A DNA stretch of 64,000 nucleotides, taken from the IMG/VR virus record IMGVR_UViG_3300035670_000105, positions 26,163 through 90,162 of that record; one strand, given 5' to 3'. Position numbers and translations under genes: made by a program. Source of the stretch: a virus. Position 1 is the first letter of the stretch. Each line of letters begins with the position of its first letter. Shown here piece by piece: positions 6,803 through 51,244 of this stretch. The notes below the pieces were generated by a model. That model was given only the letters and a program-made list of their open reading frames with translations. It ran no database searches and was not told the DNA's origin.

Positions 6803-7494
6803 TGGCTCTCCGCGTTCGCCCCGCCGGCCGCTGCCGCGGCCACCTGCCTGATCCCGATGGCACCGTCCTCATCCCGCCCGAGGACTACATCGCCGCTGTT
6901 CGCAAGACCCTCGGCTGGATCGATCTCGACCCCTGCTCCACCGCCATCGCCCAGCAGTCCATCGACGCGATGGGCTGGTATCGAGCCGAGGACGCAGAGG
7001 CCGCACTCGCCGAACCCTGGGCCGGCCGCGTCTTCCTCCACCCCCACCCTGACGGCATCATCGCCCGCTACCAGCTGCAGAAGCTGCTGCGGGACTACCT
7101 CGCGGATCGCGTCACCGCCGCTGTCCTCCTGCTTGGCAAGTCCGACTGGCTTCGCTCCGAGCCGCTGCTGCTCTCCTTCCCGTTCCTTTTTCACTACCGC
7201 CGCCTCACCCACTGGCGCTGGCTCACCGCAACCCAGGAGCTGGTGCGCATCAACCCCTCCTTCAACTCCGTCTCCCTCTACCTGCCGGCCAAGGCGAACG
7301 GCACCCATTTCGATGACGACGCCCTCGCCCGTTTCCTCGATGCCTTCTCACCCTTTGGCCGTGTCCTGCTGACAGAAGACCTCGGTGAGGACTGGGAGCA
7401 GCACGCCCTGATCGCCACGCGGCGCATGCCCGTGCATCCCGTCCTCACCACCTCGCGCATCGAGCGGCCCACCATCACCGGAGGCGAGCCATGA
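6802..7494 (+). CDS. Phage N6-adenine DNA methyltransferase-like protein with degenerate catalytic motif
   Basis: IDLDPCS and WAGRVFL motifs present, but NPPY is replaced by HPHP. Confidence 0.7.
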   Translation: MALRVRPAGRCRGHLPDPDGTVLIPPEDYIAAVRKTLGWIDLDPCSTAIAQQSIDAMGWYRAEDAEAALAEPWAGRVFLHPHPDGIIARYQLQKLLRDYLADRVTAAVLLLGKSDWLRSEPLLLSFPFLFHYRRLTHWRWLTATQELVRINPSFNSVSLYLPAKANGTHFDDDALARFLDAFSPFGRVLLTEDLGEDWEQHALIATRRMPVHPVLTTSRIERPTITGGEP

Positions 7495-7964
7495 CCGCTC
7501 GCGCCCCGTACTGCACCATCACCGGCCGCGTCATCAATGGCGGCTGCAGTGGCGTTGCCCTTCTCAATGGCCACCCCCGCTGCCGCATCCCTGTCCTGAC
7601 AGCCGGTGCACCATCGATTCAGACCGAAAGCGGCTGGCTCAGACCCGAACGCTCCCTCGTCTACGACAACCCCACCCTCCTACTCCATCACGCCGCAGCC
7701 ACCCACCCAACCGTCATCCTCACCAAGGCGCAGCTGGCTGGCTTCTCCAAGACCGCCACCCGCCTCATCGCCCTTCTGCGCCCCTACCCCTGGGCCATCC
7801 CCCAGCCCCTCGACTGGCCCGAACCTGAACTCCTCCTCTTCTCCACCATCAACAACCCCCTGCTCTTCGATCTCATCCTCCTCAAGCGGCAGCTGCAGCA
7901 AGTTGAAAAGCTCCAGCTCCATACCCTCAGCGGCAGCTCATTCCTCGCCTACCGGCGTTGCTGA
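7491..7964 (+). CDS. Hypothetical protein
   Basis: ATGA overlap with the previous gene. Confidence 0.6.
   Translation: MTARAPYCTITGRVINGGCSGVALLNGHPRCRIPVLTAGAPSIQTESGWLRPERSLVYDNPTLLLHHAAATHPTVILTKAQLAGFSKTATRLIALLRPYPWAIPQPLDWPEPELLLFSTINNPLLFDLILLKRQLQQVEKLQLHTLSGSSFLAYRRC
7920..7928 (+). promoter_or_regulatory. CATACCCTC promoter motif
   Basis: 29 nt before TTG 7958. Confidence 0.55.
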
Positions 7965-7969
7965 TCTCC

Positions 7970-8167
7970 ATGTCTGACTGGTCAGACCCCCTCTGGCATC
8001 AGCTCTACACCTCCCCCCATCAGCAGGCGATCCTCTCCGCACCCACCCCGCCCCAATCCCCCGACCCCGCCTACATCCAGATCCTCCAGCAGGCCGCCCA
8101 GCAGGCCGTCCCCCTGGAGGCCATCACCTTGACGGGGATCGATGAAACCGCTCGCGCCCTCGATTGA
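7970..8167 (+). CDS. Hypothetical protein
   Basis: Fills the operon gap; alternative TTG start at 7958. Confidence 0.45.
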   Translation: MSDWSDPLWHQLYTSPHQQAILSAPTPPQSPDPAYIQILQQAAQQAVPLEAITLTGIDETARALD

Positions 8168-8170
8168 CCC

Positions 8171-8497
8171 ATGAGCTTTCGCGCTTCTGCCGGTGCCCGG
8201 CCCTTCGGCCGCGCTGCCCTCAGCGGCGGCAAGCGCGGACGCCCCACCGCCAATGCCACCTTCCAGTTCGCCGGCAGCGCTGAGCGCCTCAGCCCCCAGG
8301 CCCAGCGACTCATCGCCTCCCAGCGCTGGAATGAACAACGCGGACGGGAGAAACCGGAAACCGCTCCCCAGAACCGCTCCATCTCCTCCGGCGCAGAGAT
8401 CTCCGCCAGCCGCGGCACCTACCGCAGTGAACGCCGCTTCGCTGGTGAACAAACACCCTTCTCCACCGGCTCTGCCGCTGCCAATCCCTTCTCCTGA
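8171..8497 (+). CDS. Hypothetical low-complexity protein (RFAG motif)
   Basis: Tightly packed between neighbours. Confidence 0.55.
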   Translation: MSFRASAGARPFGRAALSGGKRGRPTANATFQFAGSAERLSPQAQRLIASQRWNEQRGREKPETAPQNRSISSGAEISASRGTYRSERRFAGEQTPFSTGSAAANPFS

Positions 8498-13362: not shown

Positions 13363-14253
13363 GTGTCCACCGACTTTCTCAGTCGCACCGCCGCCCGCTA
13401 CCCCCTGCTGCGCCCCGACGAGGAAATCGAGCTGGGGCGCCAGATTCGCGCCTGGCAGGATCATCCTGACGGCCCGGACCAAGCCCCTGCTGCAGTGCAA
13501 CGACGGGGCAGGCGAGCGCAGGATCGCTTCCTCCTCTGCAACCTTCGCCTCGCGCACTACATCGCCCGCCGCTTCAACAATCGCGGTGTGCCGATGGAGG
13601 ATCTCGTCCAGTCCGCCACCGAAGGGCTGCTGCAGGCCGTACGCCGCTTTGAGCCGGCCAATGGCTTTCGCTTCTCCAGCTATGCGGTGTGGTGGGCGCA
13701 GCAGAGCTGCCAGATCGCCGTCGCCACGCAGGGCGGCGCCCTCAGGCTTCCCACCACCGTCAGCGAGGGATTGCGGCGTGTCGCCCGCGCTGGCGCTCGC
13801 CTGCGCGCTGAACTGAACCGCCCACCAACCGACGCCGAGATTGAAGAAGCGGCCAACCTCAAGCCCGGCCAGCTGCGCAATCTCCGCGCTGCCGCCAGGG
13901 CGGCGGACACCCGCTCCCTGCATGACCACGCCAGGCAGGGGGGCGGCTCCGATCCCAGCAGTGGAGACGCCACCTGGCTCGATCTCCTCGCTGACGACGA
14001 CCAGCACGCCAAGGAGCTGGAGCAGCGCGATCTCAACCGCAGCCTGCGTCAGCTGATTGAAACCACGCCCACTCTCACTCCCCAGCAGCGGGAGGTGCTG
14101 CGATGCCGTTACCTGACCCCCACGCCACTGACCCATGTGCAGATCGCCTCGCGGCTGAACATCAACCGGGACACCTGCCGCAGGCTGGAGCGCAGCGCCC
14201 TGACCGTGCTCAAGGCGCGGGGGGTGCGGATCCGGGTCTTCCTGCCGAGCTGA
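13363..14253 (+). CDS. Phage-encoded RNA polymerase sigma70 factor (RpoD/SigA-like, lacking region 1.1)
   Basis: RYPLLRPDEEIELGR (1.2), NLRLA, DLVQ...GLLQAVRRFEP..GFRFSSYAVWW (region 2), region 4 HTH. Confidence 0.93.
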   Translation: MSTDFLSRTAARYPLLRPDEEIELGRQIRAWQDHPDGPDQAPAAVQRRGRRAQDRFLLCNLRLAHYIARRFNNRGVPMEDLVQSATEGLLQAVRRFEPANGFRFSSYAVWWAQQSCQIAVATQGGALRLPTTVSEGLRRVARAGARLRAELNRPPTDAEIEEAANLKPGQLRNLRAAARAADTRSLHDHARQGGGSDPSSGDATWLDLLADDDQHAKELEQRDLNRSLRQLIETTPTLTPQQREVLRCRYLTPTPLTHVQIASRLNINRDTCRRLERSALTVLKARGVRIRVFLPS

Positions 14254-25772: not shown

Positions 25773-26380
25773 AGTCCAGCCTCCAGCGCCAACACCCGCA
25801 GATCAAGCACCGTGCCGCTGGTGGGTGTGTATGCACCGCGAGTTTCCAGCTCGGCAAACAGTGACGTACTGTTCGCTGCCAACTTAACCAACGTGCCGCA
25901 GTAATCACACTGCGTCACCAGCGTGCTACCCAGATCCTGCGGTGTTGGCAGATCAATGAATCCGGCGTAGTTCGCCACTTCGCCACTCGTCAGATCAAAG
26001 GCCGCGTTATCCAGGATGGCCGTAGGGCTGGCGGTATAGAGATGCAAGCGGAAGCCCGCCATCCCGGCTGTTACGGCGCTCAGACCGATCATCAGCCGCA
26101 CGCTTTGCACCAGCGCATAGCCGCCACTGGGGCCGATATTGGGCAGCGTAATAACGGCTGAACCAGCGTTAGCTGGCGTGCCCGAGTCAGCGACGCCGAT
26201 CACATCACCAGCGGTGTAGGCCGTGGTGTTACTCGGGCGGGTGATCGCCACCGCCGCCCGGTACGCCTTGCTGTCAACCGTCAGCGACTCGCCGTCATCG
26301 CCAATCGGAATCGCCGTGCTCTGATCACCTCGCAGGGCGACAACGGCATAGCGTGTGTTGCCCCTGGTCTGCACCGCCAT
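25769..26380 (-). CDS. Putative virion structural protein
   Basis: ITRPSNTTAYTAGDVIG; own promoter motif. Confidence 0.65.
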   Translation of the reverse strand: MAVQTRGNTRYAVVALRGDQSTAIPIGDDGESLTVDSKAYRAAVAITRPSNTTAYTAGDVIGVADSGTPANAGSAVITLPNIGPSGGYALVQSVRLMIGLSAVTAGMAGFRLHLYTASPTAILDNAAFDLTSGEVANYAGFIDLPTPQDLGSTLVTQCDYCGTLVKLAANSTSLFAELETRGAYTPTSGTVLDLRVLALEAGL

Positions 26381-45601: not shown

Positions 45602-46372
45602 TCAACCGGCGTAGCCGGAATACTGGGCCCCGGGCAGGGAGACGGAATCCATGCCGGCCACCCCTTCGGGGACCAGATAGACCACCTCGCCCACCACGTA
45701 GCAGCCGCCGGTGAGGGCGGAACTGATGGCACTGCCGGCGGTGTTGCCGGCGGTGGCGATGGAGTAGAGCTTGAGGGTCAGATCGGTGTTGGTGACAACG
45801 GGCGACCCGAAGGCGGTCTGCACCAGCTCAAAGCCGGTGGGCACCTGACCGGCTGCATCGACCACGATCTTGGCAGTGCCGTCCGACGCGGTGCGGACGG
45901 CACCAGCGGCGATCGAGCCAGTGGCGGATGCGGAGATCGCAGCCGTGGAGATGGCGAGCAGATCGGTGGCCGTACCGACCAGGCCGCTGCCCAGATCATC
46001 AGCCTCCTGACGACTGCCGGAGCTGTAGTAGCCAGGCTGGGCATTGACCGCAGGAACGCGGAAGCCAGCGCGGATGACGACAGAACCGGAGGGAATGAAC
46101 AGCCCGGTGATGTCAGCACGGGGCTTGTCATCAGGGCGCAGATCCGGCGAGAGGATTTTGAAATCCCAGCTGGTAGCGCCGGCCGTGATGTGAGCGACAC
46201 CCACCTTCCGCACGGCCAGCCAGCCGGGGCAGAACATCAGGGCCTGCTGCTTGCGATCACGGGGATCACCAGAAGCACGGCCATTGGCGGAGAAGTCGTC
46301 GTTGGGCGATGCGTAGGCGTTCAGGTGAGCGACGGCATTGCCGGGATAGATCTTCTTGTAAGACTCAGCCAT
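45602..46372 (-). CDS. Putative capsid-associated structural protein
   Basis: Immediately downstream of capsid, before the terminator; GAGG SD. Confidence 0.6.
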   Translation of the reverse strand: MAESYKKIYPGNAVAHLNAYASPNDDFSANGRASGDPRDRKQQALMFCPGWLAVRKVGVAHITAGATSWDFKILSPDLRPDDKPRADITGLFIPSGSVVIRAGFRVPAVNAQPGYYSSGSRQEADDLGSGLVGTATDLLAISTAAISASATGSIAAGAVRTASDGTAKIVVDAAGQVPTGFELVQTAFGSPVVTNTDLTLKLYSIATAGNTAGSAISSALTGGCYVVGEVVYLVPEGVAGMDSVSLPGAQYSGYAG

Positions 46373-46413
46373 GGAAAGTTACCTCTTGGATGGGTGAAAT
46401 GTCCTCCTTAGAT

Positions 46414-47168
46414 TCAGACGGAGTAGATGAAGCTGTGGGCGATGGTGACGAAATCGAGATTCAGATTTTCGAAGCCCGCGAACAGGCTCCAGATGAGAAT
46501 CACATAACGCGAAAAGTCATCATTGCTGTTGATGAGGACTTGCGCATTGTTCCCGCCGACACCAATGCCGATTGCCTGCGGCCCGAAGAACATCGCTGTA
46601 GCAGCTCGGGTGCTCTTCGCGGTGTTGGCCGAGAAGCCCGACGCACCATCAATCGACACCGAATAGTTATATTCGGGGACGTTAGTCGACTCGAAGAAGC
46701 GACACCCCTCAAACAGAAATCCCTGCGGCATCGTTGGCGCTCCGGCTACAAAGCCGGCTTGGCCATAGGCGGGGCCCATTCCCAGGAAATTCGATGCGTT
46801 AGGCGCCATGAATGGCTGCATCGGATTCACCATCCCGTTGCCAGGATAGCGTGCGATCTCCCTGAAATCTTCGTCCTGCCTGAGGTGCATGAGGAAGGCA
46901 GGATCGACCAGTGCTCGATAGTAACCATCCGCAAACGTCGGGACGTTGCGAGCACGCATATCGGTGACGACCTTGAGTAGATCGTTCTTCACCGAGAACT
47001 TGGCCTGGTTCTCATCACCAGCACCGGAGACATCATAGCCAGGTGTTGCCAGACCGGCTTCACTCAGGCCGCCAGGGAAGTAGTAACCACCCTGCTCTTC
47101 ATTGGCTTGACCGCGAGAGTAAGCCTTGTAGAGTTCGTTGATGAACACACGATCGCGCCAGCGGCGGT
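46414..47168 (-). CDS. Major capsid protein, exon 3
   Basis: Joining T|AC gives ...LLDD-Y-RRWRDRVF...; ends NDDFSRY..IWSLFAGF. Confidence 0.88.
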
Positions 47169-48373
47169 CTACCGAACCCGCTTTGGGAAGCGAGCCGCGG
47201 GGCTCTTTATCCCCGCGTCTACCCTTTGTCATCGAGTAGAGTCAGACTATATCTTCATCCGCTTTCAAGTGCTCGTCCCACTACGCGACCTCGGTATTGA
47301 GGCCATGGAAAGACTCACGGATACGATGAGCGACGCTGAAATCAGCGCTCTCTACGGCCTCACGAGAACCGCTGCTACCCACGCCAGGAAGCAGCTAGGT
47401 GTGAAGTCGTATGCGGAGAAGCACGGCAAGCGTCGCTACCGCGACAGCTACGAGCCAAAGCCCGGTGCCAAGCGTGTCTTCTCCCATCGCCTTTCCGGTG
47501 TTGACGAGCACTACTTCAGTTCCATTGGAACTGAAGACAGGGCCTACTGGCTTGGCTTCTTTCTTGCAGATGGCTGGATCGTCACGGAGAAAGGGACCCC
47601 CACTGGCTTTGCCATCGCCCTGCACGAGCGAGACAAAGAGGCCCTGCAGGACTTACAGAACCGCCTTGGTGGAAGCAACATGCTCCGAAGAACCAGGCCA
47701 GGCAGCAACCTACTGCAACTCAAATTGACCTCAGGCGTAGCTGCGAGACAGCTCATCCTTCACGGGGTCGTCCCCCGAAAGTCAAGAGTCGCCACTCTTC
47801 CCAAGCTATCCGACGAACTGATGCCCCACTTAATCCGGGGCTACTTCGACGGTGACGGGTCTATCAGCGTAAGAGGCGTCACGCTAACTATGGATTTCAC
47901 CTCTGGTAGCAAGGTTTTACTTGACCAGATAAGAGTCCATCTTGAGCGTGTGGCTGGCGTCAAACCAAACCTTACACCTGACCGCGCCTCTTGGAAGTTG
48001 CGTTTTTACGCAGAGAACGCTGTTCGCCTCGGCTGCTATATATATGGGCGTCCAGCCCATAACCTGTTCTGCCTTAGTAGAAAGAAGCAGAAATTCCTGT
48101 CTTATCTTGAAACGGATGCGGGGCACTCGTGGGAGCAATTACTGCCCGTTCTGGGCTCGGCTCCTAGTCGTTGAACCTTCCGTCCTGTTCCCAGGAGGGC
48201 TTGGCTGCTGATTACCCATGCGGCGTGGATCTTTTCAAGCCGTCGCGTCTGCCCTCTCAGGCTCCGCTGTGGCGACCCAGCTTTTTCCCTTGCTGAAGGG
48301 GGAAGGGCTTCCAGCAATTCACCCCGTATTGCCCTGACAGTTACCTGTCAGGCGACCACCAGCCTTTCGGCCG
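47169..48373 (-). mobile_element. Group I intron 2 of the capsid gene (1205 nt), carrying a homing endonuclease in L8
   Basis: Exon U / terminal G; P AATTGCTGGAA 48309-48319; Q AATCAGCAGCCAAG 48200-48213; R GTTCAACGACTA 48165-48176; S AAGATATAGTCTG 47243-47255; P1 with U.G pair. Confidence 0.93.
47305..48174 (+). CDS. Double-motif LAGLIDADG homing endonuclease, antisense to its intron
   Basis: YWLGFFLADGWI and HLIRGYFDGDGSI; N-terminal HTH-like part; alternative GTG start at 47269. Confidence 0.9.
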   Translation: MERLTDTMSDAEISALYGLTRTAATHARKQLGVKSYAEKHGKRRYRDSYEPKPGAKRVFSHRLSGVDEHYFSSIGTEDRAYWLGFFLADGWIVTEKGTPTGFAIALHERDKEALQDLQNRLGGSNMLRRTRPGSNLLQLKLTSGVAARQLILHGVVPRKSRVATLPKLSDELMPHLIRGYFDGDGSISVRGVTLTMDFTSGSKVLLDQIRVHLERVAGVKPNLTPDRASWKLRFYAENAVRLGCYIYGRPAHNLFCLSRKKQKFLSYLETDAGHSWEQLLPVLGSAPSR

Positions 48374-48779
48374 AGTCATCGAGCAGAGTGAGTGAACCAA
48401 TGCTCTGGTGGAAGACGCCGATGTTGCCAGTATCCAGCAACAGGCGCTGAGCGGTGAGCAGGTTTTCCCGGCTCACCTTGAAGGTGCTGGGCTGATCGGG
48501 CTCCACCGGATCTGCGGGGCCCGTATATTCATGAAGCGTCACCAAGACCTTCTGCTTGGTGATGTTCCGGCTGCTGGCAGTGCCGATGGTTTGATCAGGA
48601 TTCCGCTGACGGGTTTCCTTAGAACCAGGCGCTCCCCAGTAGCTATAACGATCAAGCTGAACTGTCTGTCCTGGCATCTTGCTAAAGTCGTGAACTACGA
48701 CCGGCTCGATTGCCATCTCGGCCACATAAGTGGGGTGCGGCCTATAAAGCTCAGCCCCAAGAATCTTGGGGAAATCACT
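48374..48779 (-). CDS. Major capsid protein, exon 2 (N4-gp56-like, HK97 fold)
   Basis: SDFPKILGAELYRPHP...DFSKMPGQTVQLDRY. Confidence 0.88.
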
Positions 48780-49129
48780 CAAGGGATCCCTGGTTTCCCA
48801 GGGGCTTGGACCATCTCATCATCCTCCACCGTTGAGGATGTCGGGCGCTCGTGCTGGTTATTAAGGGGGCTGAACCCCTCCAGTGGCCTCTGCACCTTCC
48901 GGCGGTGTACCGCCGGCTTGGCTCAGGATTACCCGTGCCTGCGCTTCTGAGACGCAAGCACTTTCAGGCACACCAGCGGCAGTGGATGCTGCAGCTGTCG
49001 CTGGTGCTCAGTTGTCAAGGTTCCCAGCTGCTGCTGGTCTGCTCAGAAGTGATGCCGATGGGGCTTCCCTGAATTCACCCGATGCTCACTCGACCGTTGC
49101 CGATCGAGGGGACAGTGTGAGGTTCACCT
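48780..49129 (-). ncRNA. Group I intron 1 of the capsid gene (350 nt, ORF-less ribozyme)
   Basis: Exon U / terminal G; P AATTCAGGGAA 49065-49075; Q AATCCTGAGCCAAG 48917-48930; R GTGCAGAGGCCA 48884-48895; S ATGAGATGGTCC 48808-48819. Confidence 0.9.
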
Positions 49130-49141
49130 ATCAATCCACAA
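49130..49141 (-). CDS. Major capsid protein, exon 1 (TTG TGG ATT GAT = MWID)
   Basis: GGAGG SD at 49153-49157; joins in frame to SDFPK; spliced CDS is 1173 nt = 390 aa. Confidence 0.8.
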
Positions 49142-49210
49142 AACGGAAAGCGCCTCCTGCGCGAATTCGGTGTGGAGGCAACCGGGGTTGTTCCCGTGTG
49201 CCTTACGGCG

Positions 49211-49226
49211 GATGGTATGTACCCTT
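49211..49226. promoter_or_regulatory. Back-to-back motif variants: CATACCATC (-, capsid) and TACCCT (+, degenerate LAGLIDADG)
   Basis: gatggtatg at 49211-49219 abuts taccct at 49220-49225, 24 nt before ATG 49250. Confidence 0.55.
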
Positions 49227-49249
49227 ATGCCTGTGTAAGAGCAACTGCA

Positions 49250-50104
49250 ATGGCTGGCACGCCACGGACAATCCTCAACCCCTATGAATCGGCGGCCTTG
49301 ACGCGACTGGTGATGTCCTTCTGTTTGGGCAAGGGCTCGCTCTGCCTGTACAGCCGTTGCTATGTCCTGCAGATCGCCCAACCCAATCGCGCTGGCGACT
49401 ACGCCCACTACCAGTGGCGGCGCATCTGCCAGTTCATTCCGACCGCCAAGGCACCGCGCTTCCATCCCCTCGGGCCCGATGGCGAGGGGGAGGGAGATGA
49501 TCGCGGCCAGTGGCGGCTGCGCATCACCAGCCGCTGGTTTGAGACGGCCTACAACATGCTCTATCCGCTGAGCGGTGCGGATCCCGAGAGTGGCTTTCGG
49601 CCGTTCCGCATCGAGCAGCCGGCGCTGGAGTTGCTCGGCGCAGAGGCCATCGCGTCACTGTGGGCGGATCGCGGCCGCGTCCTGCGCGGCACTGGAGCAC
49701 TCAAGGGCCAGCTGAACCTCAGCCGCATCTCCTTTGAAGAAGCGGATCTACTGGCTGCCTGGATCAGCCGGCTGACGGGTGCCAGCGGTGAAGTGGACCG
49801 CAGCCCCCGCAACGCCAATGCCCCGATGCTTTTCCTGGATCAGGACGATCTGCTGGCGATGCTGCAGGCCTTGCGCCCCACCTGGATGGCGCAGGCTCCC
49901 TGCCTGCTGAGCAAGTTCCAGCCGGAGCTGCCGCCGCCATCGAAGGCAATCCCGCGTCGCTCGCGCCGCCGTCGCCTGGCACTGTCGGCTGCGATCGAAT
50001 CAGGCCCTGCCGGTGTGGCGCCGGTGCCAGCGGAGCGGAAGCGCAACCGGCGCATCCCGGTACAACGGCCGATGCTGCCGCCGCTGCTCAACCAAGCAAG
50101 TTGA
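49250..50104 (+). CDS. Degenerate LAGLIDADG (I-SceI/LAGLIDADG_2-like) protein lacking catalytic Asp residues
   Basis: SFCLGKG and AIASLWADRG at the two motif positions; spacing and intervening pattern fit the fold; basic C-tail. Confidence 0.65.
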   Translation: MAGTPRTILNPYESAALTRLVMSFCLGKGSLCLYSRCYVLQIAQPNRAGDYAHYQWRRICQFIPTAKAPRFHPLGPDGEGEGDDRGQWRLRITSRWFETAYNMLYPLSGADPESGFRPFRIEQPALELLGAEAIASLWADRGRVLRGTGALKGQLNLSRISFEEADLLAAWISRLTGASGEVDRSPRNANAPMLFLDQDDLLAMLQALRPTWMAQAPCLLSKFQPELPPPSKAIPRRSRRRRLALSAAIESGPAGVAPVPAERKRNRRIPVQRPMLPPLLNQAS

Positions 50105-50918
50105 GTGCTTCCAGGAAGTAGGGGGACTGGGCGAAGCGCCTCTGGCCCGTCCCCTCCAGATCAGCGCTGACGGCCTGGGCGGCTGGCCTGGACTTGAGGC
50201 TGCTGCCCAGATCGGCGATCAAGGTGTTGAGGTTCTGGCTGCTGCTGATCGCCGCGGCCGTCAATGGCGACACGTTGCTGCTGGTGCCGGCGAGCAGGGG
50301 GGTGAGATCAGCGCCGCTGCCGCCGTTGCGTGCTGCCAGGACCGCCAGCAGGGCGCCTGCATCGCCGTTGCCATCGGATGACACGGCTCCGCCGCCGGGA
50401 GCGGCTACCGCAGGCGCTGGAGCGCTGCTGGCGGGGACTGGTGTACCGCTGTTGCCCGGGTTGGGCGCAGCTCCCAGTCGTCGGTTGTAGAAGTCGAGGA
50501 GCCCCTGGCGGTCTTTCACCGGCTGGCCGTAGAAGCTCTTGCCGGCGCTGGTGGGCAGGGACGCCCACTCCGGTGCCAGGCGATTGAGCGCAGCGCCGTC
50601 GAGCGGCTTGGTGGGATCGACGCCGCGGCGACGCACCAACTCCAGGGCGGCCCTGTCCTGGTTTTCCGGCGTCATCGCCAGGTTCTGGCCGCTGTTGGCG
50701 CCCTTCCAGGTGGGGGAGAGGAACTGATAGGCGCCGGTGGCATCCGAGGCGTAGCCGCCGCTGCTCACCACCCGCCCCGGGTGGGGCTTGGATGGATCCA
50801 CCTTCTGATACCCGAAGGTGATGTCATAGCGAGGGCGACTGGCCTTGCTGTCCCAGGTGCCCTCGGCGTAGCTGATGGTGTCCAGCAGGGCGCGTTGTTG
50901 CGCCGTGATGCCACTCAC
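50088..50918 (-). CDS. Lambda-lysozyme-like (GH104) muramidase plus low-complexity tail
   Basis: RALLDTISYAEGT, ATGAYQFL, PENQDRAA, EWASLP. Confidence 0.9.
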   Translation of the reverse strand: MSGITAQQRALLDTISYAEGTWDSKASRPRYDITFGYQKVDPSKPHPGRVVSSGGYASDATGAYQFLSPTWKGANSGQNLAMTPENQDRAALELVRRRGVDPTKPLDGAALNRLAPEWASLPTSAGKSFYGQPVKDRQGLLDFYNRRLGAAPNPGNSGTPVPASSAPAPAVAAPGGGAVSSDGNGDAGALLAVLAARNGGSGADLTPLLAGTSSNVSPLTAAAISSSQNLNTLIADLGSSLKSRPAAQAVSADLEGTGQRRFAQSPYFLEALNLLG

Positions 50919-51244
50919 CGCCGTGCTCCGCTGAGCATCTGGTAACGGCGTGAGGGAGCAGGGCGCTCGCCGGTCTGCTGAGCGCGTTCGGCTTCCTGCG
51001 CTGCGGCGTCATCGCTGAGGCCCTTGGAGCGGAGGTTGGCGTGATCTTCGCGGAACTGCTCGATGCGCCGCTCGCGCTCCAGCTTGCTTTCACCGCCGCG
51101 GCCGATGTTGCGTTCACCGGCAAAGCGAGGGCGTGGGCCGGCCTTGGCCTCAGGGCGGCCTTCGCCCGGTTGCGCCGCGGTGGGCGACTGGGTGTGGCGT
51201 GCTGCAGCAGCAGCCACCTCATTCGATCCCGCGAAGCGTCTCAA
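50915..51244 (-). CDS. Hypothetical protein (two RFAG motifs)
   Basis: TTG start 20 nt after the promoter motif. Confidence 0.55.
   Translation of the reverse strand: MRRFAGSNEVAAAAARHTQSPTAAQPGEGRPEAKAGPRPRFAGERNIGRGGESKLERERRIEQFREDHANLRSKGLSDDAAAQEAERAQQTGERPAPSRRYQMLSGARR

Follow-up and report, generated by a model that had tools for sequence, protein, structure and literature searches.

What becomes of a homing endonuclease fold in a phage genome when its catalytic residues are gone? The question is raised by one gene, P0001, in a 64,000-nucleotide stretch of viral DNA, referred to as the window herein (positions 26,163 to 90,162 of IMG/VR record IMGVR_UViG_3300035670_000105, i.e. the 64 kb at the right-hand end of a 90,162-bp record that CheckV rates complete). 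P0001 stands beside, and divergent from, a major capsid gene that is broken by two group I introns. We found that P0001 is a domesticated, nuclease-dead LAGLIDADG protein of the I-SceI type, kept by selection in a clade of S-EIVl-like cyanophages, and its sequence suggests that its new job is most likely sequence-specific nucleic-acid binding. The Synechococcus phage S-EIVl is the sole GenBank phage that matched the DNA of 46000-51000, short crAss-like matches to an intron core aside, and we know of no cultured member of the P0001 clade.

A first-pass annotation of this DNA had assigned the span 49211-50104 to a LAGLIDADG gene. The intact 284-codon open reading frame (ORF) that it described is present, but its start had been misplaced, since 49211 is the first base of a motif upstream of P0001 and the ORF itself begins at 49250. 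A 310-codon form with a GTG start (from 49172) was also considered and is not supported by the N-termini of homologues. The GC content at third codon positions of P0001 is 0.78, on par with real genes nearby. The first-pass annotation took P0001 for the only + strand gene of the structural block besides the endonuclease gene in the intron; the other long + strand ORFs of that block look like antisense shadows of - strand genes. The gene and the relevant parts of its product are as follows.

49250..50104, + strand: P0001 gene, encoding a nuclease-dead, free-standing I-SceI-like LAGLIDADG protein of 284 aa (ORF, homologues, AlphaFold, Foldseek, substitution rates)
49280..49336, + strand: first LAGLIDADG helix, residues 11-29, ending CLGKG (in the model, helix 11-26 and strand 30-34)
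49640..49675, + strand: second LAGLIDADG helix, residues 131-141 plus G142, reading LWADRG (in the model, helix 131-141 and strand 142-146)
49934..50101, + strand: disordered Arg/Pro-rich C-terminal tail, residues 229-284 (56 aa), with a conserved RR-x-P ... PP-x-L end (predicted local distance difference test score, pLDDT, 45-59)

Direct scans with P0001 itself gave no Pfam match at E<=1 and no PHROG match. Nothing matched it in a tblastn search of 50,697 GenBank phages or in a sequence-profile search of the PDB, and relatives were found in none of 185,579 prokaryote species genomes (one genome per species). Its homologues number at least 76, at 35-100% identity, and a Pfam match to LAGLIDADG_2 (PF03161; best E 1e-9) was obtained for 22 of the 46 that were aligned, although not for P0001. 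The AlphaFold model from this 46-member alignment has a pLDDT of 85.5, with the core above 95, and shows an alpha-beta-beta-alpha-beta-beta-alpha topology in two copies followed by the disordered tail. When the model was compared with the PDB by Foldseek, the best match was I-SceI (3oor_A; E 5e-10, TM-score 0.68 on the target); I-WcaI, WhiA (ranks 6, 7, 9 and 14), I-DmoI, I-AniI and the bI3 maturase (2ab5_B) followed. At E<=0.001 there were 138 PDB matches, and among the matches listed all have the LAGLIDADG fold. The fold that had been proposed from the letters of the gene is therefore borne out by the model and by I-SceI as its best structural match.

LAGLIDADG endonucleases require an acidic residue (D/E) at the C-terminal end of each helix as a ligand of the catalytic metals, and P0001 and 29/29 members of its clade lack both. 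The first motif of P0001 reads SFCLGKGS, with K28 encoded by 49331-49333, and the second reads LWADRGR, with R141 encoded by 49670-49672. At the aligned sites, LAGLIDADG_2 endonucleases encoded by capsid introns of two relatives (L009 and L003) read CALGDGC and FWMDDGS, so K28 and R141 occupy both metal-binding Asp positions. All 29 clade members examined carry K or R at position 28, where the intron-encoded proteins, as well as the DE-type relatives of a sister clade, have D; at position 141, 28/29 have R and the remaining one K. The first-pass annotation had already pointed to basic residues at both acidic positions, and the alignment extends this to the entire clade. Residues C25, G27, G29, W138, A139 and D140 are invariant, and across 34-95% identity the family has 19 invariant and ~45 nearly invariant residues.

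A check that had been suggested along with that annotation, the ratio of nonsynonymous to synonymous substitution rates (dN/dS), was carried out on the core region of three unsaturated close pairs. The values were 0.069 (window vs L003), 0.14 (L004 vs L006) and 0.115 (L011 vs L014), an overall range of about 0.07-0.15 that indicates purifying selection. Together with the conserved basic positions, this implies that the loss of the acidic residues is old and maintained, i.e. domestication and not decay.

The surface with which such proteins straddle DNA is conserved as well. Residues Q87, R89, R91, R143, N156 and R159 of the beta-sheet saddle are conserved inside the window's clade, termed KR, and are different in a sister group, termed KG. 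Endonuclease families that target many different sites would be expected to have variable saddles, the reverse of what is seen here, and the exposed Arg, Gln, Asn and Ser residues point to a putative conserved ligand that is specific to the clade. Saddle residues common to the KR and KG groups, which would indicate a shared target, were not found. The tail contains 13 K+R vs 2 D+E, in keeping with the Arg-rich tail noted at first pass, and its residues R267 and P270 are at least 90% conserved.

We then asked how the gene is distributed among relatives. At 25/25 IMG/VR loci with a homologue, the gene has the capsid gene on one side and the lysozyme-like gene on the other; it is divergent from the former, about 110-135 nt upstream of the capsid start, and its frame is intact in all loci. 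Presence/absence polymorphism, the hallmark of selfish mobility, was not seen among these 25 clade loci. These loci represent 17 distinct phages with the gene, in 6 of which the capsid gene is interrupted (the window, L003, L005/6, L009, L020-22 and L023); in the other 11 it is uninterrupted and Rfam finds no group I intron at the locus. Beside intron-less capsids, homologues are retained that include 98-100% identical proteins. For instance, L002 carries a 99% identical homologue and a capsid gene without introns, L009 and L010 encode near-identical proteins but have three and no capsid introns, respectively, and a 4.2-kb contig from another metagenome (run X7) joins an intron-less capsid gene to a 98% identical gene. 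DNA contigs of a single run contain intron-plus and intron-minus capsid alleles together. P0001 itself is free-standing, on the strand opposite to the introns and 120 nt from the nearest one. Because selection preserves it clade-wide whether or not capsid introns are present, we conclude that it has a new job. The first-pass annotation had envisaged a maturase dedicated to both introns within a splicing-controlled capsid module, and had named conservation in intron-less relatives as the result that would count against it. Retention of the gene in 11/17 relatives with an uninterrupted capsid is that result; it disfavours a dedicated intron maturase and, as far as sequence comparison can tell, favours the alternative offered there, a DNA-binding regulator.

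A candidate site for such a regulator lies directly upstream of the gene.

49198..49239, + strand: conserved block upstream of P0001, candidate promoter plus operator, conserved at homologue loci (42-99% protein identity)
49211..49219, - strand: CATACCATC, a motif of the TACCCT type directed at the capsid gene, whose start lies 70 nt downstream (the TACCYT variant is conserved in relatives)

The block comprises GTGCCT at 49198-49203, a palindromic GGTA..TACC core with TACCCT at 49220-49225, and GCCTGTGTAAG at 49229-49239. TACCCT lies 24 nt ahead of the P0001 ATG and reads GTACCCT here and ATACCCT in most homologues. It stands back to back with CATACCATC, the two overlapping via the GGTA..TACC palindrome. 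This arrangement, a TACCCT 24 nt upstream that abuts an opposite-strand motif facing the capsid gene, had been described before and proves to be conserved in relatives. GTGCYT (~16 nt upstream of the motif) and GCCTGTGTAAG (just downstream) are conserved down to ~45% protein identity of the P0001 homologues, whereas the portal promoters of the same phages retain only the 10-mer CCATACCCTC, without GTGCYT or GCCTGTGTAAG. Within the window GCCTGTGTAAG occurs once, with no second copy beyond chance. The CATACCCTC-like motif ATACCCT (mostly CCATACCCTC) is abundant, with 22 copies in the window vs 4.5 expected. Twenty of these 22 copies are on the - strand, 20-30 nt ahead of start codons and often a few nt past the TGA of the previous gene (e.g. 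27146, 28272, 33234, 41198, 44445, 51272 and 56191). ATACCCT is enriched in KR-clade loci and not in marine relatives or S-EIVl. We considered P0001 as the reader of CATACCCTC genome-wide and set this idea aside, since phylogeny confounds the enrichment in the gene-bearing clade, a sigma-70 family protein is encoded in the phage genome (gene ~13537-13713) and the P0001 gene bears the motif itself.

The reading that we prefer, and hold tentatively, is that P0001 may be a non-cutting DNA-binding protein that acts at the promoter region shared by the capsid gene and its own. Its ancestor would have been a free-standing I-SceI-type homing endonuclease that lost both metal-binding acidic residues. 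The saddle would bind duplex DNA in the ~45-bp block at 49198-49239, over the two back-to-back TACCCT-type motifs, and binding there would tune transcription of P0001 and possibly also of the capsid gene, with the basic tail either adding non-specific nucleic-acid affinity or docking a partner protein. Several observations weigh against this reading. The core of P0001 is charge-neutral (25 K+R vs 23 D+E), and the conserved block could be simply a strong promoter plus 5′ untranslated region (UTR). With a phage-encoded sigma-70, no extra factor is needed for reading TACCCT. The P0001 gene bears the same late-type motif as the structural genes, as would be expected of an autoregulator or of a protein that acts late, and less so of an on-switch for late genes. 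Lastly, a pure regulator model does not predict the clade-level link between dead LAGLIDADG genes and capsid introns.

An Rfam scan of the entire 90-kb genome found two group I introns only, both on the - strand and both in the capsid gene. We fixed the exon and intron bounds against L002, a 4-kb contig in which the capsid gene is uninterrupted.

49130..49141, - strand: capsid exon 1, TTG TGG ATT GAT = MWID (4 codons), with AGGAGG at 49153-49158; aligned to the uninterrupted capsids of L002, L025 and S-EIVl
48780..49129, - strand: group I intron 2, 350 nt, without an ORF, after capsid codon 4 (Rfam RF00028, 70.6 bits)
48374..48779, - strand: capsid exon 2 (phrog_1357 major head protein; 77-100% identical to relatives' capsids)
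47169..48373, - strand: group I intron 1, 1205 nt (Rfam 47.3 bits, gathering score 50; bounds from L002 and the spliced ORF)
~47305-48174, + strand: intron 1 endonuclease gene (LAGLIDADG_3), antisense to the intron (Pfam LAGLIDADG_3, 1.8e-14; phrog_4645, 2.6e-33)
46414..47168, - strand: capsid exon 3, stop codon included (phrog_1357, 8.4e-13)

When spliced, the exons form a single open frame of 390 aa that is identical to the L002 capsid at 386/388 residues, and both introns have G as their last nucleotide and are preceded by an exonic U. The two introns that the first-pass annotation had seen in the capsid gene are thus confirmed by Rfam, the U/G rule and the spliced ORF, with the gene model corrected to a TTG start at 49141, which gene callers and Rfam alike had misplaced. 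The Rfam 5′ limit of intron 2 (49173) was rejected: it folds the 5′ UTR and exon 1 into P1, and alignment with L002 locates the splice site after 49130. The exact allele without intron 2 was found in DNA contigs of run X5.

Several further features of the capsid locus were observed. The homing endonuclease gene (HEG) of intron 1 has a TACCCT motif of its own at 47220-47225. Its antisense layout recurs in L005/L006 and L023; in L009 and L003, the intron genes, of the LAGLIDADG_2 type, run in the sense direction. Insertion after codon 4 is likewise seen in L003, L020-22, L163 and L171. The core of intron 2 (48808-48931) has the only other blastn matches among GenBank phages, to human-faecal crAss-like phages (74-76% over ~90 nt); these reflect the conserved group I core and not relatedness. 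The capsid Shine-Dalgarno sequence AGGAGG is flanked by self-complementary GCGC...GCGC (49150-49162, - strand GCGCAGGAGGCGC), which is kept in KR-clade relatives and could form a small hairpin that presents or masks the ribosome-binding site. In S-EIVl (L001, KJ410740), an uninterrupted 383-aa capsid ORF lies at 7267-8418 on the - strand; the GenBank annotation of this region (7267-8493) has a 156-aa - strand coding sequence and an antisense + strand one (7732-8493) and misses the capsid gene.

Relatives were retrieved both by capsid and by portal, the latter retrieval being unbiased as to capsid interruptions. The portal tree contains three clades, each monophyletic, although the tree does not settle the branching among them. 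The KR clade (60-68% GC) has a single KR-type LAGLIDADG gene in the slot beside the capsid gene. The marine DE+KG clade (e.g. L025/L026, L039-L100 and L111-L190) has two overlapping tandem LAGLIDADG genes there, of which the first keeps D and E (LAGLIDADG_2, 1e-7) and the second, of the KG type, carries various non-acidic residues instead; the pair, seen at 28/28 loci retrieved via portal, is fixed. In the NUMOD4 clade (L032, L052 and L194-L273), the same divergent slot holds a 126-aa protein with a NUMOD4 motif (7.7e-10; e.g. L052 3502-3882, - strand) and, by eye, an HNH_3-like C-terminal motif, with an occupancy of 41/42 loci. S-EIVl has none of the three occupants. The protein tree joins KR and KG (94/89 support) and sets them apart from the DE type and the intron-encoded proteins, which implies that the non-cutting lineage is older than the divergence of the KR and DE+KG clades.

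Capsid introns are present in about a third of the phages in both clades that have a dead LAGLIDADG protein, i.e. in 6/17 of KR and, among portal-retrieved loci, in 8/25 complete capsid genes of DE+KG, where Rfam found group I introns in all 7 interrupted loci scanned. In the NUMOD4 clade, 0/37 complete portal-retrieved capsid genes are interrupted, and three complete genomes lack both group I introns and LAGLIDADG_2 throughout. The capsid gene accounts for all group I introns of the window's genome and of two complete DE+KG genomes. In this phage lineage, at least 8 capsid insertion sites are in use (codons 4, ~36, 48, 90, 107, ~139, ~215 and 282), several of them common to KR and DE+KG, and one capsid gene can hold up to four introns (hot-spot examples are L180 18287-22068, L161, L009 and L171). 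The contrast is one of two clades vs one, i.e. of one or two independent events, and host range or circulating endonucleases could explain the clade-level association equally well.

It is this association that speaks for P0001 as a resident trans-acting maturase or splicing helper, which would bind group I intron RNA through its tail and/or a non-saddle surface and aid the folding of the neighbouring capsid introns. Phages with the gene would then become tolerant of intron invasion, and the gene would be kept without introns because introns come and go quickly. The intron counts of the three clades (6/17, 8/25 and 0/37), the three complete NUMOD4-clade genomes without group I introns or LAGLIDADG_2, and the position of all group I introns of the window and two DE+KG genomes beside the LAGLIDADG slot all agree with this, as do the Arg-rich tail and the presence of the bI3 maturase among the structural matches; maturases without endonuclease activity are known (PMC3384342). 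We nevertheless consider a splicing helper unlikely, since 11/17 relatives with the gene have intron-less capsids, near-identical proteins included, the introns occupy at least 8 sites and differ in length, and the conserved saddle suggests a duplex-DNA-type ligand. The two-clades-vs-one contrast could equally be explained by host ecology or circulating HEGs, and LAGLIDADG maturases, where known, act on the intron in which they are encoded. Alternatively, the dead protein might bind the target of a related active endonuclease, of the DE type or intron-encoded, and block cleavage there, so that the capsid region is protected from self-cleavage or from co-infecting competitors in the manner of an immunity protein. 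In the marine sister clade, the acid-retaining LAGLIDADG (D plus E) is always in tandem with a non-acidic paralogue that groups with P0001 (94/89), the adjoining capsid gene is a hot spot of introns and HEGs, and an intron endonuclease can be a weapon between co-infecting phages (PMC11620839). Against these points, the saddle residues of KR, KG and DE differ, so that a common target is not evident, and the capsid gene is invaded by introns regardless. We know of no precedent for a shield of this kind and regard it as improbable. The broader proposition that a free-standing dead LAGLIDADG protein, as a resident general splicing helper or alternatively as a homing-endonuclease shield, licenses the capsid gene to hold up to four introns likewise seems doubtful to us.

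The remaining explanations deny P0001 a new job altogether. If it were still a selfish, active free-standing endonuclease or nickase, it would have to cut by way of other residues, e.g. D140. This residue is invariant, other HEG-type genes sit in the same slot of the sister clades, and a free-standing position beside an essential gene is common for phage HEGs (PMC10448857). However, both canonical metal-ligand positions are basic in 29/29 clade members, the gene is fixed in 25/25 loci and the saddle is conserved and not diversified, which makes continued nuclease activity very improbable. As homing endonuclease genes often degenerate once fixed, P0001 might also be a functionless, decaying remnant. 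We give this hardly any credence, because it is contradicted by the intact frames, the dN/dS of about 0.07-0.15, the 19 invariant and ~45 nearly invariant residues and the confident AlphaFold model.

A putative non-cutting DNA-binding protein of this origin can be compared with several known systems. P0001 has the double alpha-beta-beta-alpha-beta-beta-alpha fold and a core size of ~225 aa in common with I-SceI and the LAGLIDADG_2 endonucleases, but differs from them by Lys/Arg and Arg at the catalytic Asp positions, by its clade-fixed place outside any intron or intein, and by the added 56-aa basic disordered tail. WhiA (DUF199) is, like P0001, a LAGLIDADG scaffold without the acidic residues; the Thermotoga maritima protein has Arg and Gly at these positions, and WhiA regulates its own gene (PMC3384342). 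In contrast to WhiA, P0001 is phage-encoded and nearer to I-SceI, its DNA-facing sheet residues look retained and conserved, its C-terminus is disordered where WhiA has a helix-turn-helix, and it has no WhiA-family Pfam match. The yeast mitochondrial maturase bI3 (as well as bI2 and bI4) has lost endonuclease activity and gained another nucleic-acid-binding job, and P0001 resembles its setting in adjoining a gene with group I introns. Maturases of the bI3 type are, however, intron-encoded and always found with their cognate intron, whereas P0001 is free-standing and kept in intron-less relatives. The DNA-binding surfaces of HEGs have also been reused for transcription control: I-TevI of phage T4 is described as a transcriptional autorepressor in work cited in PMC3384342, and CapR of Vibrio PLE satellites, a protein with its origin in HEG DNA-binding domains, represses a phage capsid gene (PMC10448857). 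At P0001, similarly, the late-type promoter of the gene is overlaid by a conserved block specific to this gene, and it abuts the capsid-facing motif. The domains involved in those cases are GIY-YIG and T5orf172 accessory domains and not, as in P0001, a LAGLIDADG core, and I-TevI is still an active nuclease.

Domesticated homing endonucleases are, to our knowledge, rare, with WhiA, HO and the mitochondrial maturases as known cases. P0001 is of this already known kind, and its family is new; we found no description in the literature of a phage-encoded family of free-standing, dead LAGLIDADG proteins. The family is phage-only, under purifying selection, and fixed beside the late gene with the highest expression in a widespread lineage of aquatic phages, of which at least 599 capsid loci were found in IMG/VR. 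Here one slot has three endonuclease-derived occupants in three sister clades, and the capsid gene is among the densest hot spots of group I introns that we could document (at least 8 sites, up to 4 introns). The locus is hence a natural system for following the fate of a selfish nuclease once cutting stops, be it in the control of transcription, of splicing or of conflict between phages, and the corrected capsid gene model is needed for annotating these phages. If P0001 should be a splicing helper or a shield after all, it would be a virus-encoded, trans-acting factor that shapes where introns can live, and this would account both for the many introns of the two clades that have a protein of this kind and for their absence from the sister clade that has none.

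The P0001 gene is flanked on both sides by - strand genes, the major capsid gene on one side and the lysozyme-like gene (50088-50918) on the other. Its last 17 nt (50088-50104), stop codon included, are shared with the 3′ end of the convergent lysozyme-like gene, as in L002, and there is no terminator-like hairpin between the two. This implies that the transcripts of both genes must run into each other.

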